From the NCBI GenBank assembly GCA_016186945.1, contig JACPKR010000008.1:3950-67949 (forward strand): a DNA stretch of 64,000 nt, written 5' to 3'. The notes beneath the pieces are model-generated. The model was given only the letters and a program-made list of their open reading frames with translations, was not told the origin of the DNA and ran no database searches. The DNA is from Deltaproteobacteria bacterium (GTDB lineage Bacteria > Bdellovibrionota_B > Oligoflexia > Oligoflexales > Bog-1112). Below, piece by piece: positions 4,842-62,093 of the stretch (position 1 is its first letter; the number at the start of each line of letters is the position of its first letter). A program made the translations under genes and the position numbers.

Positions 4842-7800
4842 ATGCAAGAAGATGAAAACAAATTGAGTTTTAAAAGACGAGATTTTGTTCGAGGTCTAGC
4901 AGCAACCGGTGCATTTGTTTCTGCACAGGCTGCTTTTGGTGCACCCATACGTTACTTTAAACCCACGCATGTAGAAAACCCACTCGCCTTCTATCCAAAC
5001 AGGGACTGGGAAAAAATTTACAGGAATCTGTTTGAGCCTGACTCTTCGTTTGTCTTTTTGTGTGCTCCGAACGACACACATAATTGTTTGTTGAGAACCT
5101 ATGTCAAGAACGGTGTCGCTGTACGCATCGGACCCACGTACGGTTATGGAAAAGCGACTGATCTCGACGGCAATAAGGCATCCTCACGATGGGATCCCAG
5201 AATTTGCCAGAAGGGTTTGGCAATGGTTCGTCGCTTCTACGGAGACCGTCGTGTTAAAGCTGCTATGGTGCGGAGGGGTTACAGACAGTGGGTCAACGAT
5301 GGATTCCCGAGAGATGCGAAGACAGGAAAGCCAGACGCTAAGTACTTCGAAAGGGGGAAGGATAAATGGGTGAGAGTCGAGTGGGATGAGGCCTACGACA
5401 TTACCGCACGCGCCCTCGACAATATTACTCGTACCTATTCGGGAAAGCAGGGAGAGTCCTACCTCCGTGAGCAAGGCTATGATCCTGCCATGATTGAAGC
5501 CACGGAGGGTGCAGGAACCCAGACTATAAAATTTCGTGGTGGCATGGCGTTTCTTGGCTCCACCCGCATCTTCGGCCTTTACCGTTTTTGTAACATGCTT
5601 GCTTTGCTCGACTCGAAAATACGAGGGGTGGATGAAAGCAAGGCGGTTGGCGCTCGTGGTTGGGATAGTTATAGTTGGCATACAGACCTGCCTCCCGGCC
5701 ATCCAATGGTAACAGGGGCACAGACGAACGATTTCGACCTCTTCGCGGCCGACCATGCGAATCTTATTCTTGCATGGGGTATGAATTGGATTACCACCAA
5801 AATGCCCGATTCGCATTGGATGACGGAAGCGCGTCTCAAAGGTGCAAAAACTGTTGCCATCACCGTGGAATACAGCGCCACCGCTTCAAAAACCGATGAA
5901 GTTGTTATTATCCGCCCAGGGACCGACCCGGCTTTCGCCCTGGGTCTGGCCCAGGTCATCATTGACAGGAAGCTCTACGACGAAGAGTTCGTGATGAACA
6001 ACACCGACCTGCCGTTCCTTGTTCGCACCGATACTCTTCAACCGCTTCGCCCTGAAGAAGTGATAGAGGGATACAAAGCCCCTGAATTGAAAAGTTTGAA
6101 AGTCTTGAAAAAAGGCGACAAACCAAACAATCTTCAAGACAATATCCAGTCAATTCCTGAAGCCATGCTGGGCGAATTCAAGCCTTTCGTAGTCTTCGAC
6201 AAGAAATCAAAGAAATTAGTCGCCGTCACGCGTGATGAGTACGGTGCCCACTTCATGAAGACGGGAGTCAAGCCAGATCTGAAAGCCAGTCAGAAGGTAA
6301 AAACTGTCGATGGCAAGACGGTGGAAGTCAGGACAATCTTCGATCTTACCGTCGAATACCTGAACAAGAATTTCACGCCCAAGCAAACTTCCAAACTTAC
6401 CAACGCTCCTGAAAAGGCCATCATCTCCCTTGCCACACAGATTGCGAAGAACAAGGAAAAGACACTCTTTGCTTGTGGGATGGGTCCCAATCAGTTCTTC
6501 AACTCGGATTTGAAGGATCGAGCTATTTTCCTCGTCGCAGCGTTGACGCGCAACATCGGCTTTCCAGGAGGTAACGTCGGCAGCTATGCAGGCAATTACA
6601 GGGCAGCATTGATAGGTGGTGAGCCTGTTTATGCGATGGAGGATCCCTTCCACCCGCAACTGGAAAAGGGAGGAAAGGTCAAGCTCGGCAAATTCCTTCA
6701 TTACGAGTCCCTTCACTACTTCAACTACGGTGACAGACCTTTGCGTATAGGCAAAACCCTTTTCACGGGCAAAGGGCATGTACCGACACCGACGAAGGCC
6801 ATGTGGCTTAACAATTCCAACTCCGTCATCGGTAACATCAAGTGGCATTTCGATGTTGTTAACAATACGCTTCCCAAGTTGGAAATGATCGCCTATGCCG
6901 ACTGGTGGTGGACAGGATCTTGCGAGTATTCGGACATCGTTTTTGGTGTCGACAGTTGGGGTGAATTCAAGGCCCCCGACATGTGTGGCTCATGCACGAA
7001 CCCGTTCGTGTCCATTTGGCCACAGACTCCCCTACCTCGTATTTTTGACACAAAGACTGACATGGACATACTTGCTGGTGTGGCTAAGCGTTTGGGAGAA
7101 ATCATCGAAGAGCCACGAATGGAGCAAATGTGGAAATTTGTGTTCGACAACGACGTCCATGAGTACCTTCAACGCATCATCGATCATTCCTTCACGTTGA
7201 AAGGTTACAATATTCACGATCTTGAGAAAAAAGCACAGGAAGGCATTCCCGCTCTGATGCAAAACCGCACCTACCCACGCATTTCATCTTACGAACAAGC
7301 GAAGTCGGAACAACCCTGGCATACGAAATCGGGACGTCTGGAATTCTACAGACCGGAGCAGGAATTCCTCGATAACGGAGAAAACCTGATCATCTATCGC
7401 GAGCCAATCGACTCGACACCGTACGAACCCAATGTGATTGTCGCCCACGAGCACATCGCCATCAGACCGAAGAGTCCCAAAGACTTGGGTCTTGATCCGA
7501 ACGATTTGTCGGTGGAAGTTAGGCAGGTTCGTAACGTCCTCAAAACACCGGACGAAGTCGTCAACTCAAAACACCCGCTGCGGCTGAAACTTTACACCCA
7601 CGTCTACCACACTCCCAAGTACCGGCACGGGGCGCACTCTACACCTGTTGACACGGACTATACGTCTGTCTGGTTCGGACCCTTTGGTGACGTTTACCGT
7701 CATGACAAACGGATGCCCTCCTGCACAGAAGGCTTTGTCGACATCAACCCACTCGATGCCAAGGAACTGAAGCTGGAAGACGGGGACTACGTTTATGTCG

Positions 7801-8318
7801 ACGCGGATCCGGAAGATCGTCCCTACAGGAATTTCAAGAAAGATACGGAGGAATATAAGGTCGCTCGCCTGATGTTACGTGTCCGCTACTACCCTGGCAC
7901 ACCACGAGGGATTGCACGCACTTGGCACAACATGTATGGCGCAACGTTCGGAAGCGTTCGCGCTCACGAAAGTCGCGCTGACGGTTTGGCGAAAAGTGCG
8001 GAAACAGGGTACCAATCGATGTACCGATACGGAAGCCATCAAAGCGCCACCCGTGCCTGGCTGCGTCCCGTTCACATGACGGAAACACTGGTACACAAAG
8101 GTATGTTTGGTCAGGAAATTGGCAAAGGCTTTGCCCCAGATATTCACTGTCCGGTTGGTGCGCCACGAGAAGCATTCGTCAAGTTCACCAAAGCAGAAGA
8201 TGGTGGAATGGGTGGCCAAGGAAAATGGCGTCCTGCATCGCTCGGTTTCCGTCCGACTTACGAAAATGTGGCAATGAAAGAATATTTGAAAGGCAGCTTT
8301 CTTAAAGTGAAAGCTTAA
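4842..8318 (+). CDS. Tat-exported molybdopterin (bis-MGD) oxidoreductase alpha subunit, Nar/Nxr clade of the type II DMSO reductase family
   Basis: 1158 aa. Twin-arginine signal [20 protein letters not shown]0-type motif C74-x3-D78-x3-C82-x39-C122. SWHTD282LPPGHP...ILAWGMNW...MPDSHW...[13 protein letters not shown]...[11 protein letters not shown] is collinear with the E. coli NarG segment around the Mo-ligand Asp. Confidence 0.85.
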
Positions 8319-8332
8319 GGGGAGAAACGAAC

Positions 8333-9463
8333 ATGGCAAAAGTTAAAAATTGGCAAATCAATCGTGAGATGGAATACCCTTACGAGGAACATAGGCCGAA
8401 AAAACAGTGGGCGATCGTTTTCGACCTCAACAAATGTATCGCCTGTCAAACCTGCTCTATCGCATGTAAGACGACTTGGACCAGCGGCAAGGGCCAGGAG
8501 TACATGTTCTGGAACAACGTCGAAACAAAGCCTTACGGAAGTTACCCTCTGGCTTATGACCTTCGCGTCCTGGAACAGCTCGGCGCGCAGGAGTGGGAGA
8601 AACAGAAACCCTACCAAGGGAAAACTATTTTCGAAGCTGCACCCCCCAATGAGCGGGTTGTCCATTTTCATCCGAAAGATGAAGACTGGATGTATCCAAA
8701 CATAGGTGAGGATGACTGCACGAAAAATGTGCCCGCTGGCGATCATTTGGAACTTCCGCACGACAAGTGGTTTTTCTACCTGCCGAGGACTTGCGCTCAC
8801 TGCACCTACCCCGCTTGCCTTTCCGCCTGTCCCCGGAAGGCAATCTACAAACGGGAGGAAGATGGAATCGTCCTGATCGACCAGTCCAGGTGCAAAGGTT
8901 ACGGGGAATGCGTACGAGCTTGCCCCTATAAAAAGTCGATGTACAACCCTTACACTAGGGTCAGTGAGAAGTGCGTAGGCTGCTACCCCGCAGTGGAGCA
9001 AGGAAAACAACCTATGTGCGTGCAGAACTGCATCGGTAAAATTCGCGTCATGGGCTTCATCAACCCGCCGTGGAAAGCAAGGGAAGACAACCCGATCGAC
9101 TACCTCGTACATAAAAAACAGATTGCTCTCCCTTACTACCCGCAACTTGGGCTGGAGCCAAACATTTACTACGTTCCCCCCATTCATGCAGACCGTAAAT
9201 ATCTGCGTCAGATGTTTGGTCCCCATGTTGATGACGCGATTGAACGTTACAAGAAACTAAAGGAAGATACGAAAACACAGGGTCTGCTCGTCCTCATGGG
9301 CGGCACAGACAAAATCATGCACAGCTTCAAAGTCAACGACAGAACAGCGTTCGGCTACGACGAAAAAGGGGAGGAAGTGGTAAGCAGTCCTCTCGTCGAA
9401 CCTTTGATTGAACGCCCCGCCTTTGATACGAAGGTCGGTGCCATCCGTAACAATACACCGTAA
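8333..9463 (+). CDS. iron-sulfur beta subunit (NarH/NxrB-like, four Cys clusters)
   Basis: 376 aa. CIACQTCSIACK, CAHCTYPACLSACP, CKGYGECVRACP, CVGCYP...CVQNC. Immediately follows the alpha subunit. Confidence 0.85.
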   Translation: MAKVKNWQINREMEYPYEEHRPKKQWAIVFDLNKCIACQTCSIACKTTWTSGKGQEYMFWNNVETKPYGSYPLAYDLRVLEQLGAQEWEKQKPYQGKTIFEAAPPNERVVHFHPKDEDWMYPNIGEDDCTKNVPAGDHLELPHDKWFFYLPRTCAHCTYPACLSACPRKAIYKREEDGIVLIDQSRCKGYGECVRACPYKKSMYNPYTRVSEKCVGCYPAVEQGKQPMCVQNCIGKIRVMGFINPPWKAREDNPIDYLVHKKQIALPYYPQLGLEPNIYYVPPIHADRKYLRQMFGPHVDDAIERYKKLKEDTKTQGLLVLMGGTDKIMHSFKVNDRTAFGYDEKGEEVVSSPLVEPLIERPAFDTKVGAIRNNTP

Positions 9464-9473
9464 GGAGGCTGAT

Positions 9474-10322
9474 ATGAAATTTCTCGATAGAAAATTGGTA
9501 ATAGGTCTAAGTGTCTTTTACTCACTCAACGTAACAGCAATCGTAGCTCCCTCCGTAAAAGGGGATTTAAGCAAGCCAAGTTTGGATGAGACAATCTGGG
9601 CGACAGCTAAAGAAGAAACCGTTACGCTCATGGCGCAGCCCATGGCTATACCTCGACCCGCAGAGACAGCAACAGCACAGGTTAAGGTAAAGGCGGTGCA
9701 TAACGATTCGTGGATTGCCTTCCGTCTTAGCTGGGAGGATAAAGAGAAAAGTGAAGCGGGCAAACTGGGCGAGTTTTCCGATGCTGTTGCTGTGCAATTT
9801 CCTGTAAAGGACAACAAAAGCCCTCCGCCTGTTTTCATGGGGATGAAAGATAACCCCGTGCATATTTTCCACTGGCGTGCGCAATACCAGATCGATAAGG
9901 AAAAAGGCAAGAGGGAGATGAAGGATATTTACCCCAACATGAATCCAGACATGTACCCGATGGAATTCAAAGACGAGGGCCATCTGACAGGTTTGACGGA
10001 TGAAAAGCGGGAAATATTCTCACACGGCCGAGCCGCAGGAAACCCACAGTCGTACGCAAAAGCAGGTGTGGATGAAATCTTCGCAGAAGGGTTTGGCACT
10101 AGCTCGGTGATCAAGAATGTCGAAGCCGTTGCACATGGAGAATGGCAGAAGAGCGGCTGGACCGTCGTCATTTCCCGTCCTCTGGTGAGAGAAGAAGGCT
10201 CACACCTTAAAGTTGGTGAGGACACCTTTGTCGGGTTCGCTGTCTGGCAGGGTGGCAAAGATGAAGTCGGTTCACGTAAGTCTGTAACCATGCAATGGAC
10301 CCCACTGTCCATCGCAAAATAA
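9474..10322 (+). CDS. heme-b gamma subunit of type II DMSO reductase family enzymes (EbdC/DdhC/NxrC-like)
   Basis: Start moved to ATG 9474 (RBS AAGGAGG at 9462-9468). N-terminal Sec signal/anchor. WIAFRLSWED...AVAVQFPV...HIFHWRA block typical of this subunit family. Position in operon. Confidence 0.65.
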   Translation: MKFLDRKLVIGLSVFYSLNVTAIVAPSVKGDLSKPSLDETIWATAKEETVTLMAQPMAIPRPAETATAQVKVKAVHNDSWIAFRLSWEDKEKSEAGKLGEFSDAVAVQFPVKDNKSPPPVFMGMKDNPVHIFHWRAQYQIDKEKGKREMKDIYPNMNPDMYPMEFKDEGHLTGLTDEKREIFSHGRAAGNPQSYAKAGVDEIFAEGFGTSSVIKNVEAVAHGEWQKSGWTVVISRPLVREEGSHLKVGEDTFVGFAVWQGGKDEVGSRKSVTMQWTPLSIAK

Positions 10323-10332
10323 AGGAACTTCC

Positions 10333-30665: not shown

Positions 30666-30783
30666 GGGCAAGGAGGTGGTTTGGAGGAAACTGCGCAGCT
30701 GGTTCCTCCAAGAAATGCTTTGGGGGAGCGACGGTTCCCTCGCCCCCCCAAACCCCCCTCTCCCTATTTGCCCCAAGTGGCTA
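30666..30783 (+). repeat. F1 element, long form (A + B + right TIR)
   Basis: GGGCAAGGAGGTGGTTTGGAGGAAACTGCGCAGCTGGTTCCTCCAAGAAATGCTTTGGGGGAGCGACGGTTCCCTCGCCCCCCCAAACCCCCCTCTCCCTATTTGCCCCAAGTGGCTA. Its last 3 nt are the stop codon of 30781-31734. Confidence 0.9.
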
Positions 30784-34237: not shown

Positions 34238-35058
34238 TTGTTGAAATTTCGTCGAAAGTATTGGGTTGGCTGGGGGCCTTTCTTTTTCTGCTCCTCAGTG
34301 GCGCTTTTTTAGGCCTTCTGATGTCTCGCGGATTTTTGTGGTTCCTTGCCTCTTATTCCACCGAGACTGCCTTTGAAATCATGATCGCTGCTTTGGGTAC
34401 CTTATTCGTCACGGTGCTATCCGTATTTATTGCCGCGCCTCTTGGGATGATCGTGGGGATTGTTAAAGCTCAGAGACTGCTCCCCCGTTTTGGCCATTTC
34501 CTCGACGTTTTCATAGACAGCTTGGCGAGTCTGCCCTCCATCGCCGTTGGCTTTCTAGGATATTGGGCCATCTTGCAAATGCGAACTTACTTCGACTGGA
34601 ATCTCTTCCCTGGTCTGCTACCTGCCGCATCATGTTTGGCAATCCTCAACTTGCCGATCATTGTGCGAACGACAGAATCGGCCATAATCCAAATCCCGCG
34701 CGATTTGCAAGTTACGGGAGCTTCGCTCGGGTTCACTCCCTTGCAGAATATTTTCTACGTGCTGTTACCGCTTGCCAAGAAAGGGATCGGTGGCGGCTTA
34801 TCCCTTGCTTTCTCCCGAGCTGCGGAAGATACGGCGGTCGTGATGCTGACCGGAGCTGTCGTAGACGCGATCTTGCCAAGAAATCTGTGGGATGCTTTTC
34901 CCACCCTGTCTATGCAAATCTTCTTCGGCATTACCGATGCTCGCTCTGAAAATGACGAGGCCAAACTTTTCGTATGCACACTTGTTCTACTCGCCATGAC
35001 AACACTGTCCTCTCTCTTCGGCGAGCGCCTGCTTAGAAAGAGGGAACGTTCACCATGA
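34222..35058 (+). CDS. PstA-like ABC transporter permease
   Basis: 278 aa, multi-TM. SRAAEDTAVVMLTGA conserved-loop-like motif. Confidence 0.6.
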   Translation: MVMVSVVEISSKVLGWLGAFLFLLLSGAFLGLLMSRGFLWFLASYSTETAFEIMIAALGTLFVTVLSVFIAAPLGMIVGIVKAQRLLPRFGHFLDVFIDSLASLPSIAVGFLGYWAILQMRTYFDWNLFPGLLPAASCLAILNLPIIVRTTESAIIQIPRDLQVTGASLGFTPLQNIFYVLLPLAKKGIGGGLSLAFSRAAEDTAVVMLTGAVVDAILPRNLWDAFPTLSMQIFFGITDARSENDEAKLFVCTLVLLAMTTLSSLFGERLLRKRERSP

Positions 35059-35846
35059 CCGTCACAGCCCGGATCAAAGAACTGTCTCTGTCTTACGGCG
35101 AAAGCGTCGTTTTTGAGAAGATAAGTTTTTCCCTCCGAAAAGGCGAACTGACTTTCCTAAACGGACCGTCGGGTGCTGGAAAGACCTCCTTGCTGCAAGC
35201 ATTCAATCGAACCTTGCCCGCGCCCCCTGCTTGCCTGACAGGTGGTGTTGAATTTTTTCTGTCAGAAAGATGGGTGTCGTCTCACTCTCTCCCTCTGCCC
35301 TTGCTAAGAACCAAAGTCGCTCTGATCCTGCAAACTCCTCAACTTCTCCCGGGAAGCATCAGACGTAACGTGGAACTCCCTTTGAAAGTTGTGGGCAAAA
35401 TTGGAAAAAGTGAGCGAAACGAAAGGATAGAAGTCTCCTTGAAACGGACGGGTCTCTGGGAAACGGTAAAAGACAAGTTGAATCAACCGGCCTCGATTCT
35501 CTCGGGTGGGCAGAAGCAACGACTCTGTCTTGCGCGCGCCATCGCTATGAAGCCAGCATTCCTCCTCCTCGACGAACCCACGGCCTTTCTCGATCAGGCG
35601 TCTGCTGAGCAAATTCTAGTCCTCCTGCAAGAACTGAAGGACGAGTGCACGATTCTCGTTGTTTCTCATAAGGAAAAAGAAGCCGAAGTCTTTGCAGATA
35701 AAAAACTATTTCTGCTAGAGCTTCAAGAGACCTGCCCCCAAGGGATTTCTTGGAGGAACCAGCTGCGCAGTTTCCTCCAAACCACCTCCTTGCCAAAAAA
35801 CCTCCTTGCCACAATCCAAACCACCTCCTTGCCACTAGACCGGTAG
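35055..35846 (+). CDS. PstB-like ABC transporter ATPase with repeat-encoded C-terminus
   Basis: Walker A GPSGAGKTS, signature LSGGQKQRL, Walker B LLLDEPTAFLD, H-loop VSHK. Last 37 aa (PQGISWRNQLRSFLQTTSLP...) are encoded by F1 copy 35735-35835. Confidence 0.7.
   Translation: MTVTARIKELSLSYGESVVFEKISFSLRKGELTFLNGPSGAGKTSLLQAFNRTLPAPPACLTGGVEFFLSERWVSSHSLPLPLLRTKVALILQTPQLLPGSIRRNVELPLKVVGKIGKSERNERIEVSLKRTGLWETVKDKLNQPASILSGGQKQRLCLARAIAMKPAFLLLDEPTAFLDQASAEQILVLLQELKDECTILVVSHKEKEAEVFADKKLFLLELQETCPQGISWRNQLRSFLQTTSLPKNLLATIQTTSLPLDR
35735..35835 (-). repeat. F1 element, core A with triplicated CCTCCTTGCC terminal module
   Basis: CCCCCAAGGGATTTCTTGGAGGAACCAGCTGCGCAGTTTCCTCCAAACCACCTCCTTGCC-AAAAAACCTCCTTGCC-ACAATCCAAACCACCTCCTTGCCAC. 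Confidence 0.9.
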
Positions 35847-37055: not shown

Positions 37056-37058
37056 AAG

Positions 37059-37165
37059 CTATAGTATTTGGGAAAAAGAATTTGTGGAGAGGACCTTTTT
37101 TGAAAAAAAGTTCCCCTCCACACCTCCCCCCAAAAAACTTCAAATCTGAAGTTTTTGAAAAGGGG
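37059..37165 (+). repeat. F2 composite palindromic element
   Basis: CTATAGTATTTGGGAAAAAGAATTT-GTGGAGAGGACC..GTTCCCCTCCAC-ACCT-CCCCCCAAAAAACTTCAAATCTGAAGTTTTTGAAAAGGGGG. Confidence 0.9.
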
Positions 37166-37239
37166 GTTGTCAGTCCTTTCCTCAGGCATTATCCTCCGAG
37201 CCAAGCTATTTCCGCCATTCCAGTCTAAGGACATAGATC

Positions 37240-43228: not shown

Positions 43229-43241
43229 TTCCCACCCCCCT

Positions 43242-43343
43242 CCCCCCAAAAAACTTTAACTATTGAAGTTTTTAAAAAGGGGCTTGGGGAAATAACTTTT
43301 TTCAAAAAGTTTGTCCCCAAATTGATTATCTTGAATATTATAG
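43242..43343 (+). repeat. F2 element (hairpin modules 3 + 4) inside the moeA-moaD intergenic space
   Basis: CCCCCCAAAAAACTTTAACTATTGAAGTTTTTAAAAAGGGG-CTTGGGGAAATAACTTTTTTCAAAAAGTTTGTCCCCAA-ATTGATTATCTTGAATATTATAGG. Confidence 0.85.
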
Positions 43344-43345
43344 GC

Positions 43346-44605
43346 TCAGAGCAAAACAAGCTCGACCACGTCTCCCTTCCTCAACTGTTTGCCTTCCTCA
43401 GGAAGAATGGCCCACGCGTTCGCATCGAGAAGCGAACTTACCATAAATGATGCTTGGCCTGGTACGATCGTAAGTTCCGAGCCTTCCGGCGATGGGTGCC
43501 ATCGGGCCTTCATAAAACACCGCAAACCTTCCGGTTTTTGAAAGTCATGAGTCAGACGAGCTTTCCATGGTGCGTTTAGGTTTTCCCCCAACATGGCCTG
43601 TAGGTAGGGCAGCACAAAAAAGCGAAACCCCACTGCTGTCGAAACAGGATTGCCGGGAAGGCCGAAACATACCGGCCCATGTTCAAATTCCGCAAAAAGA
43701 ATCGGTTTCCCAGGTCGAATGGCCACCTTGTGAAAATGGATCCTTGCCTGCAGGTCGTTCAAACCTTTCAAGATGAAGTCATATTTGCCAACGGAAACTG
43801 CCCCGGTTGTTATGATAACGTCTGGCCCTTCCTCTAATAGAGACGTCATGAGACTGATGAAGCGATCGGGTTCATCGTGAACCGTCCCGTAAAATTTTGC
43901 CTCCACCCCAACTTGCTCAAGGGCAGCCATAAGGTAGGGGCCAGTCGAGTTACGAATCATACCAGGCTCAAGCGTGACCTGGGTGTGAGGCACCAGCTCC
44001 TTTCCTGTCGAGATAACCGCGACTTTCAAACGTCTAACGGGAACGTCACTAACCCCTAGACTGGCAAGAGCCAAAACGTCTGTCGGTACGAGTTTCCTCC
44101 CTGAGGGGATCAGGATTTGGCCCTCCTTAAAGTCTTCACCTTTCCTTCTAATATTTGCCCCCGGTTTAACAGGGTGTCTGATAAACATTTTGTGAGTGCT
44201 CCCCTCGCAAAGAAGCACATCTTCAACCCGTACAACGGCGTCGAAACAATGGCCTTCCGGGAGGGGGGCGCCTGTCATGATTTCAACGGCATAGTTCCCA
44301 GCAGCTGGCTTCTCGATCAGAACGTCTCCCGCCGCAACACTCCCCATCACTGTGAACTCAAGCGGTGCCTCTGGTGTCGCCCCGGAACTCAGCGAAGATT
44401 GAAGAGCATAGCCATCCATAGCTGAGTTATCGAAAGAGGGGAGTGATTCCCTTGCATATAGATCGTCTGTCACAATTTTTCCTATTGCATCCCCTAACCC
44501 GAGCATCTTGGGGGAGCGACGGTTCCCTCGCCCCCCCAAACCCCCCTCTCCCTTAGAAAGAGCTACACCGCGGATTTTCTCAAAAGCTTCTCCATAGGAA
44601 ATCAT
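43346..44605 (-). CDS. moeA: molybdopterin molybdenumtransferase carrying an in-frame F1 module-B insertion near the N-terminus
   Basis: 419 aa. SFDNSAMDGYAL, PGNPVS motifs. Residues KGEGGLGGRGNRRSPK are encoded by the repeat at 44507-44553. Confidence 0.85.
   Translation of the reverse strand: MISYGEAFEKIRGVALSKGEGGLGGRGNRRSPKMLGLGDAIGKIVTDDLYARESLPSFDNSAMDGYALQSSLSSGATPEAPLEFTVMGSVAAGDVLIEKPAAGNYAVEIMTGAPLPEGHCFDAVVRVEDVLLCEGSTHKMFIRHPVKPGANIRRKGEDFKEGQILIPSGRKLVPTDVLALASLGVSDVPVRRLKVAVISTGKELVPHTQVTLEPGMIRNSTGPYLMAALEQVGVEAKFYGTVHDEPDRFISLMTSLLEEGPDVIITTGAVSVGKYDFILKGLNDLQARIHFHKVAIRPGKPILFAEFEHGPVCFGLPGNPVSTAVGFRFFVLPYLQAMLGENLNAPWKARLTHDFQKPEGLRCFMKARWHPSPEGSELTIVPGQASFMVSSLLDANAWAILPEEGKQLRKGDVVELVLL
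44507..44553 (+). repeat. F1 module B fragment embedded in the moeA coding sequence
   Basis: CTTGGGGGAGCGACGGTTCCCTCGCCCCCCCAAACCCCCCTCTCCCT, identical to module B of copies at 30718-30765 and 62047-62090. Confidence 0.9.
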
Positions 44606-45591
44606 GGATGTCCTCCCCCTTTCGCAATATGGACCGCATGGGGCAATAGAGTTTCCAACGTTTCGATTCCTGCCTCAAGCGCCTGCGGCTTTCCTGGCAA
44701 TGCGATCACTAAAGTTTGGCCAATGAGGCCCCCCTCACTTCCGCTAAGCCAGGATTTTTTGGTTTGTACAGCCCCTTTTTGTCGTAAAAGTTCACCGATA
44801 CCCGGGACCGGTTTTGTGAAAAGTTTCGACAGCGTCACAAGTGTGACATCACGAGGCCCCAACCCGGTACCGCCTGTTGTCACGACAAGGTCAGCCTGCT
44901 GAACCTCTACGAAATGCAAGACGGCCTCACGGATGCGTTCTCCCTCGTCGGGGACAAGCTTGGCGTCGAGAACAGCCGCACCGCGTTCTTCAAGTAGATG
45001 CCTGAGGCGAGGCCCAGAGTGATCTTCAGTCTCACCGCGTGCGCAACGGTCACTTACCGTCAGGACACATGCGCGTATCTTTGCCAACGGATGCTCGACT
45101 TTCTTTTCAACCTTTTCAACGTTCTCGAATTTGGGATGCAGCCAGACACCTGATTTTCCCCCTTCTTTTCTCACCAGATGAATGTCTGACAGACAAAGGA
45201 CAGGATCGACTCCCTTGCTAAGATCGTAAATCGCAAGAAGTGCTGCACTCACTCCCGTCAGAGCTTCCATCTCTACACCCGTCTTTGCTGTTGTGAATGC
45301 TTCGCAGCTTACGGTGATCGAGTGATTGTCACTAAATTCGCAGCTCACCTTCACGCCGTCCAAGCCCAGAGGGTGACAGAGGGGAAGTATGTCGGAAGTC
45401 CTTTTAGCCGCTGCAATTCCGGCTAGTTCGGCCATTGCCAACACATCTCCTTTCGGCATCTGTCGCGAGCGGATACGTTGTAAAGTTTCCGCCGCCATGA
45501 TGATCCTTCCCCGCGCAAGGGCACGGCGTCGTGTTGCTGTTTTTTCCGTTACGTCTATCATGTGAAAGGAACTATGCTCGACCATTCCCAT
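44602..45591 (-). CDS. moaC: bifunctional MoaC (cyclic pyranopterin monophosphate synthase) / MoaB-MogA-like protein
   Basis: Start about 45591. MoaC part has AKRTSDILPLCHPL. C-terminal part has LTVSDR...TTGGTGLGPRDVT. Confidence 0.8.
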   Translation of the reverse strand: MGMVEHSSFHMIDVTEKTATRRRALARGRIIMAAETLQRIRSRQMPKGDVLAMAELAGIAAAKRTSDILPLCHPLGLDGVKVSCEFSDNHSITVSCEAFTTAKTGVEMEALTGVSAALLAIYDLSKGVDPVLCLSDIHLVRKEGGKSGVWLHPKFENVEKVEKKVEHPLAKIRACVLTVSDRCARGETEDHSGPRLRHLLEERGAAVLDAKLVPDEGERIREAVLHFVEVQQADLVVTTGGTGLGPRDVTLVTLSKLFTKPVPGIGELLRQKGAVQTKKSWLSGSEGGLIGQTLVIALPGKPQALEAGIETLETLLPHAVHIAKGGGHP

Positions 45592-45842
45592 CCTTTCTGT
45601 GTGTTTATAAGTAAGGTGGTTTAATATCACAAAGAAAGACAGATATATGTCTAAAAAATGCACGGTTCTAAATACGGAAGCATGTCCGGCGAGAGAAAGC
45701 GTCGCCTTCAGAAATTTGGAAAAACTTTCTTTGTTTAATAGCTACTTAAGAAATGTTGTGTATCCAAATCTTGCAAAGCAAGATTGTCCGAATAAAAATG
45801 ATCTAACCAACGAAACATTTTAACTTTTGGAGTGGTGCCACG

Positions 45843-48143: not shown

Positions 48144-48303
48144 AGCCACTTGGGGCAAGGAGGTGGTTTGGAGGAAACTCCGCAGCTGGTTCCTCCAAGA
48201 AATCCCTTGGGGGAGCGACCCTTCGCTTTGCTCAGGGCAGGCTTTTCCCTCGCCCCCCCAACCCCCCCTCTCCCTATTTGCCCCAAGTGGCTTACGCATT
48301 ACG
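48144..48303 (+). repeat. F1 element, longest copy (A + expanded B + right TIR)
   Basis: AGCCACTTGGGGCAAGGAGG...CTCCCTATTTGCCCCAAGTGGCTTACGCATTACG. The module-B hairpin loop is expanded by about 31 nt (CCCTTCGCTTTGCTCAGGGCAGGCTTTTCCC). Begins 9 bp after the nrdJ stop. Confidence 0.9.
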
Positions 48304-48389: not shown

Positions 48390-49370
48390 ATGAGTAAGAT
48401 CAATACAATAAGACTCCTTACCTTCTTGGTCTGTCTCCACTTGCCGCTTTGTTATGCCATGCCTCCCAAGAGGCCACTCGGCTTCGAATTGTTGGAAGGA
48501 GCAAGGCTAGCCGAAAGTGATGGAGAAGATAGCGGGGATGAGGGGGCGGCAGCAGCACATCCCATCTATGCCCTGGCTGAAGATGATGAAGAAGAAGATG
48601 ACGAGTTTGTTGCAGGTACTGCCTTTCCTGCACTCCCCGTAATTATAATCACACCCGCTGACCCCCCCACAATTATAATCACACCCGCTGAAACCGAACC
48701 TGCCTTCAACGGAATCCTGCAACGATTCCTTCTCACTGTCAGGACCTATCTGGATCAAGAGCGGGACGACCTGACTCCTTACGTACCTCGATCTCTACGT
48801 GCAAACATTGCTGGAATTCGTCGATTGATGACGGCTGTGCTTGCCGACGACCTTACGACCGCACGGCGCCTTTTGGAAGAAGGGGTGGACCCACGTGTTC
48901 CTGACTTTGAAGACTCTGCGGGTAGAGTTCCCTTGCATGCTGCCACAACAACCGGAATGGTGGATTTATTGCTTAGGCACGGCGCAGACATAGAACAACC
49001 CGACTACGATGGGATGACCCCACTACATGTTGCGGTGATGCTGTTTCGTTTTGGTCATGTGGAGGATTTCGGGGGATATGATCGTCATTATGATGTCGTG
49101 CGACACCTTCTCGATCATGGTGCAGATATCAATGCGCGCAATATTCACGGCCATCGACCTCTCGATTTTGCGGCGCTGGAAGACTTACCAAGGAACATCT
49201 TAGATATGTTGACCCCCCCTAATCCTCAAGCGGGCGCGGCTACGGGACAAGGATTCGGGTTGGGGTTTGGCTCGGCAGAGGACAGCGGATCCCTCGATTC
49301 TCTATCAAGCATGGGCTCGCTTCACGGTGGCGAAAGAAGGGGGGGAGAGCGAGAGGGTGCCGCCGAATGA
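48390..49370 (+). CDS. secreted ankyrin-repeat protein
   Basis: 326 aa. Signal peptide. ANK repeats (GRVPLHAATTTGMVDLLLRHGADIEQPDYDGMTPLHVA..., LLDHGADINARNIHGHRPLDFA). 30-bp tandem duplication at 48641-48691. Confidence 0.75.
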   Translation: MSKINTIRLLTFLVCLHLPLCYAMPPKRPLGFELLEGARLAESDGEDSGDEGAAAAHPIYALAEDDEEEDDEFVAGTAFPALPVIIITPADPPTIIITPAETEPAFNGILQRFLLTVRTYLDQERDDLTPYVPRSLRANIAGIRRLMTAVLADDLTTARRLLEEGVDPRVPDFEDSAGRVPLHAATTTGMVDLLLRHGADIEQPDYDGMTPLHVAVMLFRFGHVEDFGGYDRHYDVVRHLLDHGADINARNIHGHRPLDFAALEDLPRNILDMLTPPNPQAGAATGQGFGLGFGSAEDSGSLDSLSSMGSLHGGERRGGEREGAAE

Positions 49371-52682: not shown

Positions 52683-52733
52683 TTTTTACTCCTCATGTTA
52701 GGATTGATAGGTTTGCAAGTAATGTGTAAACCC

Positions 52734-52866
52734 TTTGGGGCAAGGAGGAGGTTTGGAGGAAACTGCGCAGCTGGTTCCTCCAAAGAAATCCCTTGAGGGA
52801 GCGACGGTTCCCTCGCCCCCCCAAACCCCCCCCTCCCTTTTTGCCCCTAGCGGCTTACGGGTTACG
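52734..52866 (+). repeat. F1 element, long form (A + B + right TIR), diverged
   Basis: TTTGGGGCAAGGAGGAGGTTTGGAGGAAACTGCGCAGCTGGTTCCTCCAAAGAAATCCCTTGAGGGAGCGACGGTTCCCTCGCCCCCCCAAACCCCCCCCTCCCTTTTTGCCCCTAGCGGCTTACGGGTTACG. Confidence 0.9.
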
Positions 52867-56671: not shown

Positions 56672-56751
56672 TTGGAGCAAGGAGGTGGTTTGGAGGAAAC
56701 TGCGCAGCTGGTTCCTCCAAGAAATCCCTATTTGCCCCAAGTGGCTTACGC
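56672..56751 (+). repeat. F1 element, A + right TIR (module B absent)
   Basis: TTGGAGCAAGGAGGTGGTTTGGAGGAAACTGCGCAGCTGGTTCCTCCAAGAAATCCCTATTTGCCCCAAGTGGCTTACGC, 5 bp after the stop of 53463-56666. Confidence 0.9.
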
Positions 56752-57447: not shown

Positions 57448-58167
57448 ATGAACAAAAAAAGTTTGGTCATCGTACCGACTTACAATGAAGCCAAAAATAT
57501 AGGACCGTTAGTAGGGCAAATCTTCGCTATTCTGCCTTCGCTTTCTATACTCTTCGTTGATGATAACAGCCCGGACGGCACTTTGCAGCGAATCGAGGAC
57601 GTTCAAAAACAGCACCCCATGCGTATCGACGTCATTTCACGGTCGGGCAAACTCGGACTGGGAACTGCCTACATAGCAGGTTTCCGCTGGGGGCTGGAAA
57701 ACGGCTTCGATTATTTTATAGAAATGGATGCCGATTTTTCGCACGACCCGCGCTACCTTCCGAGATTTTTAGAACTTCTGGAAACGAACGACGTTGTAGT
57801 GGGCAGTCGCTACATTCCGGGAGGGGGGACCAAAAACTGGAACTGGCTCCGTCGCCTCATCAGCCGGGCTGGCTCTTTTTACGCCCGCACTGTCCTTGGA
57901 CTTCGCTTGATTGATTTAACCGGCGGTTTTAACGCCTGGCGTCGCAATGTACTGGAATCCATCGGCCTCGATCGTATCAAAAGTGAAGGGTATGCCTTTC
58001 AGATCGAACTTAAGTATAGGGCCCATCTAAAGGGATTTCGCATCGTTGAGTCTCCTATAATTTTTGTAGATCGTCTTGTTGGCACATCCAAGATGTCTAA
58101 AAAAATCGTCTGGGAAGCAATTTATAGGGTGCTGATGCTCCGCTTTGGGAAACACTCAGAAGTTTAA
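57448..58167 (+). CDS. polyprenol-phosphate mannosyltransferase-like family 2 glycosyltransferase
   Basis: 239 aa. VIVPTYNEAKNI, VDDNSPDGT, EMDADFSH motifs (Dpm1-like). Confidence 0.8.
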   Translation: MNKKSLVIVPTYNEAKNIGPLVGQIFAILPSLSILFVDDNSPDGTLQRIEDVQKQHPMRIDVISRSGKLGLGTAYIAGFRWGLENGFDYFIEMDADFSHDPRYLPRFLELLETNDVVVGSRYIPGGGTKNWNWLRRLISRAGSFYARTVLGLRLIDLTGGFNAWRRNVLESIGLDRIKSEGYAFQIELKYRAHLKGFRIVESPIIFVDRLVGTSKMSKKIVWEAIYRVLMLRFGKHSEV

Positions 58168-59511
58168 CGACGGGTTCCTTGAGGCTATCGCTATGAGCTG
58201 AGGTTTGGCTTTGTTGAGCGTCTCCTTGTATTCCCGTTCCGGAATCGCATCGAAAGTGATACCGCCTCCTGCCCACGTGTATGCTTTGTCTCTTTTGCAT
58301 ACGATCGACCGGATCATGATGTTGAAGTCCATGTTTCCGCACCGGCTGATATAACCAAGAGAGCCTGTGTAAATACTGCGATTGTGAGGCTCCAGCTCAT
58401 GGATGATTTCCATCGTCCGGATTTTAGGAACACCTGTAATTGTTCCGCCCGGAAAAACTGCTCGAAAGATGTCCCAAAAACTGACGTCAGATCTTAGTTT
58501 CCCGATGACATCTGACTCCGTATGGATGACATAACTGTAGGGCACAAACTCCATAAACTTGTCGACTTTGACCGTTCCAAACTCGCAAATCCTCCCCAAA
58601 TCGTTTCGCGCCAAATCCACCAGCATCGCATGTTCCGCACACTCCTTGGGATCAGAGGCAAGCTCTTTAATAAACTTCGCAAGTTCCTCAGGACTTCCCA
58701 TCCTTCGCGTACCTGCAATAGGTCGTGTGTGGATGTTTCGCCCAACCTTTTTAAATAGGCGTTCGGGAGAGGCACTTAGGATAACAATGTCGTCCCACTC
58801 AAAGTAGGAAGCAAAGGGAACAGGACTTATCCTTGATAACTCTCTGTAAATCGCAAGAGGATCGGCAATGCTAGGAAGCGTAAAACGCTGAGCCAAGTTG
58901 ACTTGGTAACTGTGCCCCGATCGAATGAATTCCTGAATGCGCTTAATCGTAGCTAAATAGTGCTCAGGGGTGAAATTTGAGAAGCTCTGTAGCCTTTCTA
59001 AAGGAAAAGGAATTCCTGTCCCTTCGCGATCCTTGTGTTTGGATACTCGTGAAACGTAATGATCCAATTTGTCTATTTTGCTTTGGCACTCTTTTCTGTC
59101 GTGGCCAATGGCTATGATTTGTAAAGATTTCTCCCAAAGGTCAAATAAGAAGAAATGGTCGACGTAATAAAAAAACAGGTGAGGCAAACCTATTGAGTCC
59201 TCATGAACCGGTATATCTTCAAAAAGCTGAGACGCTTCGTAGGAAAGCCCTCCCACCCATCCCCCGCAAAATGGCAAACGAGAGTCCGGCGCCCCGCTTG
59301 ATTCCAGCAATCGCGACCACTCCGTAAAAAGATCGCAAGCTCCTCCCCAATGCGAAGATGAAAAACGACCGCTCGGGTCGAAACCAAGAAGTGCATAACG
59401 ATGTTCCTTAGAAATCAAAGTACTTTCCAAAAGAAAACGCGAGCCTTTGGGAAGCACTTCCAAAAGTTCGATGGGAGAAACAAAAGGGCTTATGATTTTT
59501 TTTACAAGCAC
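58156..59511 (-). CDS. pabB: chorismate-binding enzyme, aminodeoxychorismate synthase component I-like
   Basis: 451 aa. FPGGTITGVPK and GGGITFDA motifs. No adjacent trp genes, so PabB is favoured over TrpE. Confidence 0.6.
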   Translation of the reverse strand: MLVKKIISPFVSPIELLEVLPKGSRFLLESTLISKEHRYALLGFDPSGRFSSSHWGGACDLFTEWSRLLESSGAPDSRLPFCGGWVGGLSYEASQLFEDIPVHEDSIGLPHLFFYYVDHFFLFDLWEKSLQIIAIGHDRKECQSKIDKLDHYVSRVSKHKDREGTGIPFPLERLQSFSNFTPEHYLATIKRIQEFIRSGHSYQVNLAQRFTLPSIADPLAIYRELSRISPVPFASYFEWDDIVILSASPERLFKKVGRNIHTRPIAGTRRMGSPEELAKFIKELASDPKECAEHAMLVDLARNDLGRICEFGTVKVDKFMEFVPYSYVIHTESDVIGKLRSDVSFWDIFRAVFPGGTITGVPKIRTMEIIHELEPHNRSIYTGSLGYISRCGNMDFNIMIRSIVCKRDKAYTWAGGGITFDAIPEREYKETLNKAKPQLIAIASRNPSLNF

Positions 59512-61970: not shown

Positions 61971-62093
61971 CGTAATGCGTAAGCCACTTGGGGCAAGGAG
62001 GTGGTTTGGAGGAAACTGCGCAGCTGGTTCCTCCAAGAAAAATCATGGGGGAGCGACGGTTCCCTCGCCCCCCCAAACCCCCCTCTCCCTATT
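61971..62093 (+). repeat. F1 element with complete left TIR (A + B; right end truncated)
   Basis: CGTAATGCGTAAGCCACTTGGGGCAAGGAGGTGGTTTGGAGGAAACTGCGCAGCTGGTTCCTCCAAGAAAAATCATGGGGGAGCGACGGTTCCCTCGCCCCCCCAAACCCCCCTCTCCCTATTC. Confidence 0.9.

Follow-up and report, generated by a model that had tools for sequence, protein, structure and literature searches.

How does part of a largely intergenic repeat come to be read as protein within a gene for cofactor synthesis? The question is raised by moeA in a stretch of 64,000 nt from contig JACPKR010000008.1 (positions 3,950 to 67,949; assembly GCA_016186945.1, Deltaproteobacteria bacterium), which is hereafter called the window. Near its 5' end, moeA carries an in-frame copy of module B, a 45-nt inner part of a repeat family (F1) with further copies across the window. 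We consider it likely, at a probability of roughly 70%, that this segment is a patch copied in frame from a donor with modules A and B, that about four codons of the host gene were replaced by it, and that it was kept as a likely neutral loop.

Module B copy inside moeA

The gene and the repeat features within it are as follows.

43346-44605, minus strand: moeA (molybdopterin molybdotransferase), 419 aa, with the repeat-encoded loop (Pfam, AlphaFold2, Foldseek)
44507-44553, plus strand: solo module B (moeA copy), in the same orientation as the plus-strand copies with modules A and B; moeA codons 18-33 on the minus strand
44508-44539, plus strand: module B hairpin (GGGGGAGCGA...TCGCCCCCC), which can fold on both strands
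44525-44552, minus strand: canonical G-quadruplex motif GGGAGAGGGGGGTTTGGGGGGGCGAGGG with G6 and G7 runs, on the moeA coding strand (regular-expression scan)

The 47-nt string that the original prediction had placed within moeA, CTTGGGGGAGCGACGGTTCCCTCGCCCCCCCAAACCCCCCTCTCCCT, was found at 44507-44553 exactly as quoted. With up to three mismatches allowed, the window holds five copies including that of moeA. The other four, located at 11736-11782 (minus strand, one mismatch), 30719-30765 (plus strand, one), 52792-52838 (plus strand, two) and 62044-62090 (plus strand, one), compare with none expected by chance (mean of 0 matches in 100 dinucleotide-preserving shuffles). The best copies differ from the string at its first two bases only, and the truly common unit is therefore the 45 nt at 44509-44553 (TGGGGG...CTCTCCCT) and not the full 47 nt. 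Over this unit there is no mismatch among moeA, the copies starting at 30721 and 62046, and a metagenome contig (L001) that is described below. The claimed identity to intergenic copies thus stands over 45 nt but not over 47 nt, where the copies at 30719 and 62044 each have one mismatch. Both of these example copies are real, with quoted starts (30718 and 62047) that were wrong by 1-3 nt.

On the minus strand the repeat is read between two AAG codons (44554-44552 and 44509-44507), as had been proposed, and the translation runs ...ALS-K18-GEGGLGGRGNRRSP-K33-MLGLGDAIGK... Module A and the terminal inverted repeats (TIRs) of the parent element are both absent here. Module B is free of stops in all six frames, its 45 nt correspond to 15 codons, and it forms the G+C-richest 45 nt of moeA (73% vs 51%). 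Its RNA fold reaches -20.8 kcal/mol on the plus strand (z -3.0) and -25.8 kcal/mol on the coding strand (z -2.6). Seven of the eight G-quadruplex motifs that the same type of scan detected in the 64 kb lie within module B copies, and the one in moeA is located on the mRNA strand, 50-80 nt downstream of the start codon. Scanned for promoters and terminators, the surroundings of moeA showed none that the repeat had created.

The host protein is MoeA by its domains and its fold. Frame and motifs beyond the repeat proved intact, as expected, with an uninterrupted frame of 419 aa and all three Pfam domains above the gathering threshold (MoeA_N 1.9e-37, MoCF_biosynth 3.1e-29, MoeA_C 1.9e-11). The protein is 100% identical to a protein from a metagenome-assembled genome (MAG) that is annotated as MoeA at NCBI ('Deltaproteobacteria bacterium'). 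Its AlphaFold2 model, built with 75 sequences, has a predicted local distance difference test (pLDDT) score of 94 and a predicted template modelling (pTM) score of 0.88. Foldseek matched this model with a template modelling (TM) score of up to 0.86 to Cnx1E, and gephyrin E and E. coli MoeA were also matched.

Start codon and translation of the repeat

Two in-frame ATG codons have to be considered as the start of moeA, one upstream and one directly downstream of the repeat.

44611-44616, minus strand: Shine-Dalgarno sequence GGAGGA, read from the sequence, 5 nt before the start codon of moeA (ATG, 44605-44603)
44602-45663, minus strand: moaC-mog (moaB) fusion, upstream of moeA (Pfam MoaC 2e-48 and MoCF_biosynth 1.7e-29)
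44504-44506, minus strand: in-frame ATG (M34) directly 3' of the repeat, preceded by it as ...CGTCGCTCCCCCAAG/ATG

If the functional gene started at M34 (ATG 44506), the repeat would be a 5' leader and the 33 upstream codons a remnant. The position of this ATG immediately after the repeat speaks for such a start, as do the HMMER local alignments to solved MoeA and gephyrin structures, which begin at residue 34. However, no Shine-Dalgarno sequence lies within 15 nt upstream of M34, whereas GGAGGA stands 5 nt before the ATG at 44605, which overlaps the TGA of moaC-mog as ATGA. Residues 1-17 (MISYGEAFEKIRGVALS) match the conserved N-terminal helix of MoeA, with M1, Y4 and A7 conserved in at least 90% of 75 aligned sequences, and AlphaFold2 predicts the helix at residues 4-20 with high confidence (mean pLDDT of residues 1-20 of 90-96). 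The frame is open, and ribosomes that start at 44605 would read through the repeat anyway. We rejected the start at M34, which appears very improbable. Because the Shine-Dalgarno sequence, the ATGA overlap and the conserved helix all belong to the ATG at 44605, the repeat is placed inside the coding sequence. The signals in the sequence support its translation as MoeA residues and not a position in the 5' untranslated region (5' UTR), a position that would have spoken against the original prediction.

The repeat-encoded loop in the MoeA fold

In the AlphaFold2 model, the helix at residues 4-20 is followed by a segment with no secondary structure (21-32; pLDDT below 50 at 22-27) and by a strand at 33-36. 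The repeat peptide (residues 19-32/33, GEGGLGGRGNRRSP[K]) is predicted to be a disordered Gly/Arg-rich loop between alpha1 and beta1 of domain I. A mapping onto the structure thus places the segment in a predicted loop of low confidence. A homologous segment in orthologs would contradict an insertion, and none was found: the segment is absent from all of the 119 best relatives, each of which is at most 54% identical to the window protein. The nearest of them (51-54% identity) come mostly from Bdellovibrionota-type MAGs.

The distance from A7 to G42 amounts to 35 residues in the window protein and to 23-37 residues in 118 relatives, with a mode of 25 (79/118). Fourteen of the 118 measure 29-37 residues, from which we conclude that the loop tolerates extra length. 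Removal of 15 residues from the window protein would leave a distance of 20, shorter than in every one of the 118 relatives, and for this reason a replacement is favored: about four host codons between two AAG codons were probably replaced. The family consensus at the site is R-x4-E, compared to K18-x14-K33 in the window protein, which is a net gain of 10 residues. The Pfam MoeA_N profile, position 19 of which resumes at residue 31, points to a gain of about 12. In the alignment with E. coli MoeA (1fc5), M34 is paired with residue 29, and the N-terminus of the E. coli protein gives a gain of 11. The by-eye estimate that this segment is about 12 residues shorter in E. coli was close (+11 to +12, and +10 against the 118 closer relatives). 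Of the expected indel of 15-16 aa, the insertion-like segment holds (0/119 relatives) but the plain addition of 15-16 codons does not, the net gain being about 10.

Parent repeat family

The parent element of family F1 is a modular repeat of about 146 nt that resembles transposable elements of the miniature inverted-repeat type (MITEs) and consists of a left TIR, the module A hairpin, module B and a right TIR. Module A contains a hairpin (GGCAAGGAGGTGG-TTTGGAGGAAACTGCGCAGCTGGTTCCTCCAA-GAAATCC), while module B has a hairpin of 10-12 bp followed by an 18-nt C-rich tail. In the fold of the full element, this tail and the module A head are base-paired. We counted 13 copies of module A and seven copies of module B in the window. 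Module B directly follows module A in six of its seven copies, the moeA copy being the sole exception. These six copies are listed below.

11736-11782, minus strand: module B adjoining module A, intergenic, with AAG on either side on the G-rich strand as in moeA
28153-28200, minus strand: diverged module B (94% identity) adjoining module A
30719-30765, plus strand: module B between module A and a right TIR, intergenic
48206-48275, plus strand: module B variant that contains an additional hairpin segment internally, in an element with a complete right TIR
52792-52838, plus strand: module B in the element at 52719-52866, the only one to carry both TIRs
62044-62090, plus strand: module B adjoining module A and a complete left TIR (61972-)

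TIRs of 25 nt (GTAATGCGTAAGCCACTTGGGGCAA and TTGCCCCAAGTGGCTTACGCATTAC) flank some of the element copies, and the left TIR at 61972-61996 is complementary to the right TIR at 48278-48302 over 25/25 positions, within the 15-30 bp usual for MITEs. Most copies in the window are truncated. Both TIRs are present, in diverged form, only in the element at 52719-52866, and its flanks (GTTTGCAA and GTTTGTAA) match at seven of eight positions, a possible 8-bp target-site duplication in the one complete copy. The element has no coding capacity for a transposase, is present in many copies and lies largely between genes: 14 of the 15 elements in the window are intergenic or located at the ends of genes. 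A scan of 55 open reading frames (ORFs) of the window detected no Pfam family of transposases, and Rfam gave 0 matches in the window at the gathering threshold.

The copy at 56677, which contains module A only, reads ...AAATCCCT/ATTTGCCCC..., whereas copies with both modules read ...AAATCCCT/TGGGGG...CTCTCCCT/ATTTGCCCC... Since the two types differ exactly there, module B is a precise unit of 45 nt that is either present or absent. On the G-rich strand, the copies at 11736 and 52792 read AAG-GGAGAG...CCCCC-AAG, and the stretch that they have in common with the moeA copy extends to 48 nt, or 16 codons, with AAG at both ends. The full consensus element is open in frames +1 and -1 only. Read in the moeA frame, the right TIR would put a TAG immediately upstream of module B.

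Several further observations concern the same family. In the variant at 48206-48275, about 24 nt that fold into a small extra hairpin (GCGACCCTTCGC...) replace or expand the loop region, which is evidence for nested modularity. Module A is read into the 3' end of two genes, namely a SCO1/SenC-like gene (16685-16731 within the ORF at 16633-17508, minus strand; tail ...ARRWFGGNCAAGSSKK...) and an ABC-transporter ATPase gene (35743-35833 within the ORF at 35055-35846, plus strand; tail ...GISWRNQLRSFLQTTSLP...), and both tails are repeat-encoded C-terminal extensions. The head of module A, GCAAGGAGGTGGTTTGG, is tandemly re-duplicated at 22131-22147 and 35800-35833, adjoining full copies of module A. 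A TAGAAAG heptamer follows module B immediately in moeA (44554-44560) and after a run of nine T in the copy at 11736 (11720-11735). Its presence at both sites may be due to chance, or the patch in moeA may have been copied together with some of the flank from a donor like that at 11736.

Second solo module B and distribution in public data

An exact-pattern scan of JGI metagenomes yielded one contig, L001 (Ga0307416_100636549; 1150 nt, 41% G+C). At positions 863-908 it carries module B with 45/45 identity, again without module A and without TIRs, and module B thus occurs without module A at a second site. On L001, module B starts five residues downstream of the GATase domain encoded by a pabA/trpG-like gene. 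The pabA-like ORF reads through it, gaining a tail of 27 aa for a total of 225 aa. The 119 other pabA-like matches listed are 173-229 aa long, mostly 187-208 aa, and 11 aligned relatives end 0-8 residues past the NFL motif. Downstream lies a prepilin-type gene with the N_methyl motif KKGFTLLE, and the stretch of its frame from the previous stop to this motif lacks ATG, GTG and TTG. From its sequence context, module B on L001 seems to have overwritten the boundary between the pabA-like and the prepilin gene. The C-terminus of a chorismate-binding enzyme on the same contig shares 67% protein identity with the protein encoded at 58156-59511 of the window, and because the identity of this neighboring enzyme is only 67%, L001 represents either a diverged relative or a paralogous locus. 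L002, a relative of L001, was considered as a possible empty site for the pabA-like junction and rejected, as its synteny differs, with an adenosine deaminase downstream.

Neither a target-site duplication nor a common target motif was found at the two solo sites. The original prediction had stated that module B can move without module A. Its occurrence alone in moeA and on L001 bears out the second half of this statement, while the movement itself is something that we infer, as neither an empty site nor a target-site duplication was found, nor a transposase among the 55 ORFs scanned in the window.

Exact-pattern searches of the GTDB representative genomes gave no stored match for module B and, among the matches listed, none for module A; module B had 0 matches in the viral collection. 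A query of the protein database with the six-frame module B peptide gave 24 candidates with shared words, three of which matched at E <=10. These three are short hypothetical ORFs over copies with modules A and B that lie on further contigs of the moeA-bearing MAG (HYW48_ locus tags). The sensitivity of this query was low, MoeA itself not being recovered. An exhaustive HMMER search with the frame +1 peptide of modules A and B against 1.84 billion representatives returned only four short element-derived ORFs and no long protein. Judged by these sequence searches, the repeat family is rare and lineage-restricted in public data.

Origin of the moeA segment

A transfer from the element to the gene is the only reasonable direction that the sequences suggest, because the segment occurs in 0/119 relatives, is a G+C outlier within moeA and is 100% identical to intergenic copies. 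The reverse, an old lineage-specific loop of moeA that was captured by the repeat family, could be argued from the fact that no close relative exists to date the loop. This reading was rejected, and we give it almost no credence: besides the deviating composition and the perfect intergenic copies, module B has hairpin symmetry and a C-rich tail that pairs with the head of module A, and on L001 it stands in a context other than moeA.

In the explanation that we favor, the segment would not have arrived by transposition of the whole element, as TIRs and module A are missing from it and a TAG from the right TIR would fall in frame. It would instead have been copied from a donor with modules A and B, for example by template switching or microhomology-mediated repair, with microhomology at the AAG...AAG (CTT...CTT) triplets that flank module B in donors such as those at 11736 and 52792. 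The outcome would be a templated patch set between a pair of AAG codons (or AAG and GAG), in which about four ancestral codons between conserved R/K and E/K positions were replaced for a net gain of 10 residues. Its persistence may be explained by a length that is a multiple of three, by the lack of stops, and by a flexible Gly/Arg peptide in a loop of variable length. The repeat-encoded loop is most likely neutral or slightly deleterious baggage and no adaptation.

A number of points weigh against this patch. The microhomology at its ends is only 2-3 nt long, which is weak evidence. A word-indexed search of 5.8 billion proteins for an empty site gave the identical MAG protein and then relatives of at most 54% identity. 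Because the nearest MoeA proteins are 51-54% identical, the ancestral loop and the age of the event cannot be reconstructed. A short lineage-specific loop that received a plain insertion of 45 nt keeps some probability. The junctions between moeA and module B were read from the assembled contig alone, the repeat-bearing MoeA is a predicted protein known from its gene sequence alone, and the counts of solo module B copies, copies within ORFs and transposases cover the 64-kb window only.

Such a plain insertion could be the work of module B as a tiny mobile element moved in trans (e.g., by a hairpin-recognizing enzyme of the HUH/RAYT type), which entered a single AAG codon of a short ancestral loop and replaced nothing. 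The precise presence or absence of the 45-nt unit within the larger element fits this explanation, as do its identical ends at two unrelated solo sites and its strong hairpin, and splitting the codon as A/AG around 15 inserted codons regenerates the observed sequence exactly. However, the ancestral A7-G42 distance would then have been 20 residues, below the minimum of 23 and the mode of 25 in the 118 relatives, and in the model the helix at 4-20 would run directly into the strand at 33-36. The missing target-site duplication and target motif at the two solo sites and the lack of a transposase family among the 55 ORFs scanned in the window, a stretch of only 64 kb, also argue against it, and we regard mobilization in trans as unlikely, while leaving it an appreciable share of probability. 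A bolder proposal, which we consider distinctly improbable, is that module B is an autonomous, coding-compatible mini-cassette of 15 codons that spreads without its parent MITE by template switching or repair patching and needs no transposase. If true, the hairpin on one strand and the G-quadruplex motif on the other would point to structure-induced spread, the 100% identity would extend across diverged organisms (the neighboring enzyme on L001 being 67% identical), and the module would seed new loops and tails, internally in moeA and C-terminally in the pabA-like gene. The slippage-prone G6 and G7 tracts and the G-quadruplex motif in the 5' coding region of moeA could then make the synthesis of molybdenum cofactor (Moco) switchable.

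Truncated elements are common in the window (copies reduced to module A, an isolated TIR at 21213 and a stub of module B after module A at 35735), which would suit an insertion of the whole element of about 146 nt into moeA followed by deletions that removed module A and both TIRs. Yet the full element contains TAG and TAA stops in the moeA frame, and the intermediate would inactivate the gene. Two independent deletions exactly at the boundaries of module B would be needed as well, and the independent solo copy on L001 has the same boundaries; such a history has very little probability. An artefact, in which the metagenome assembler threaded a repeat into moeA, has to be weighed for any MAG, repeats being classic sites of misassembly. 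It was rejected and seems extremely improbable, since moeA stands on either side of the repeat, in one frame and in the correct order, and an independent assembly from another project also contains a solo module B (L001). Furthermore, the flanks in moeA and in the donors have only 1-3 nt in common, and a de Bruijn graph would presumably need reads that span both junctions. Over all of these alternatives we prefer the patch copied from a donor with modules A and B.

Neighborhood of moeA and other features of the window

The gene belongs to a cluster with the order moaC-mog, moeA, moaD, moaE and mobA, and moeB (ThiF-rhodanese) lies on the opposite strand. The region 4842-11019 holds an operon for an EBDH/Nar-type molybdoenzyme (type II DMSO-reductase family) that comprises a catalytic subunit of 1158 aa, a 4Fe-4S subunit, an EB_dh haem subunit and a NarJ-like chaperone. 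Since the window encodes this operon together with the remaining moa and mob genes, Moco is presumably needed by the host, and the operon explains in physiological terms why the Moco genes nearby should remain functional.

A second, unrelated repeat family (CCTCCCCCCAAAAAACTTTA...GAAGTTTTT.AAAAGGGGCT.GGGGAAA) occurs at 43239-43321, where it fills the gap between the stop of moeA and the start of moaD. The moa operon has thus been invaded by two repeat families. Further copies of the second family, all of them intergenic, are found at 11018-11137, 23642-23765 and 37057-37176.

Elsewhere in the window, an exact 27-nt direct repeat with a palindrome (ATCCCGCGGCTTGACCGCGGGATGACA) is present at 2604-2630 and 2657-2683 with a spacing of 53 nt, and 48628-48687 consists of a tandem repeat of 2 x 30 nt. 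Two separate stretches of a 274-aa ORF at 21261-22085 (minus strand) match the 2-oxoacid dehydrogenase acyltransferase catalytic domain, a pattern that may reflect an internal insertion or a truncation.

Comparison with known repeat systems

Palindromic repeats within genes and in frame are well described for the Rickettsia palindromic elements (RPEs), which comprise RPE-1 to RPE-10 (Ogata et al. 2000, as reviewed in PMC10969869 and PMC3733652). Intragenic repetitive extragenic palindromic (REP) sequences of the GTAG/CGTC type are known from Opitutus, Thioalkalivibrio and others (Di Nocera et al. 2013, PMC3733652), and BOX, enterobacterial repetitive intergenic consensus (ERIC) and other MITEs have been found fused to ORFs (Delihas 2007/2011, PMC3184786; PMC10969869). 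The in-frame repeat in moeA is a new example of this known phenomenon, of the type seen in Rickettsia, and no new system.

The resemblance to RPEs concerns behavior. F1 is palindromic, multi-copy and mostly intergenic, and one of its copies is predicted to be translated within a metabolic gene at a site where the fold tolerates it; the structural model places this palindromic repeat in frame at a position that is predicted to be permissive, as RPEs are. It differs in its host, an unrelated uncultured MAG of the Deltaproteobacteria/Bdellovibrionota type instead of Rickettsia, in its extent (module B only, 45 nt, vs a whole element of about 100-150 bp), in its frequency (one internal case in 64 kb vs dozens in Rickettsia), and in the net length change, which suggests that host codons were replaced. 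We therefore keep the term RPE-like behavior, which the original prediction had used, as a functional analogy of an in-frame palindromic repeat at a permissive site and drop it as a statement of family membership. The repeat is treated here as an analogue of RPEs by what it does, and not as a member of their family.

GTAG/CGTC REPs are likewise short hairpin repeats (20-40 bp) that at times lie in protein genes and add 10-30 residues, and no dedicated transposase is known for CGTC REPs (PMC3733652). In contrast to them, module B has an 18-nt C-rich tail and normally lies inside a larger TIR-bounded element. The unpaired GTAG/CGTC tag by which these REPs are recognized (PMC3733652) was not found at the end of the module B hairpin, which is flanked by CTT and CCAAAC on one strand and by TTT and AAG on the other, CGTC occurring within the stem. 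Membership in this family was rejected for lack of the terminal tag.

The pneumococcal BOX elements (boxA-boxB-boxC) and the ERIC/MITE group share with F1 that modules are present or absent per copy (module A only, A and B, or B only) and that copies lengthen genes at the 3' end or are fused to ORFs internally. They differ in sequence family and host, and in F1 a single inner module stands alone at coding sites. The parent element corresponds to a MITE in its length of about 146 nt, its TIRs of about 25 nt, its lack of transposase coding, its many copies and its largely intergenic location. The copies in moeA and on L001 do not qualify as MITEs, since they consist of module B only and lack TIRs, and the possible target-site duplication of the parent element is imperfect and limited to the one complete copy.

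The comparison suggests that the distinctive points of the moeA repeat are minor, namely the use of an inner 45-nt module only, a second solo site at a coding boundary, and a length that resembles a replacement. For annotation it serves as a warning, as masking of the repeat or reassignment of the start to M34 would mis-annotate moeA. It also offers a small and clean case, a single 45-nt sub-module in a defined loop of a known enzyme fold, which is usable for asking how such insertions originate (transposition vs repair-templated patching) and what a protein tolerates. In relation to the known systems, it extends the RPE type of phenomenon, in which selfish palindromic repeats enter proteins, to an uncultured lineage far from Rickettsia.

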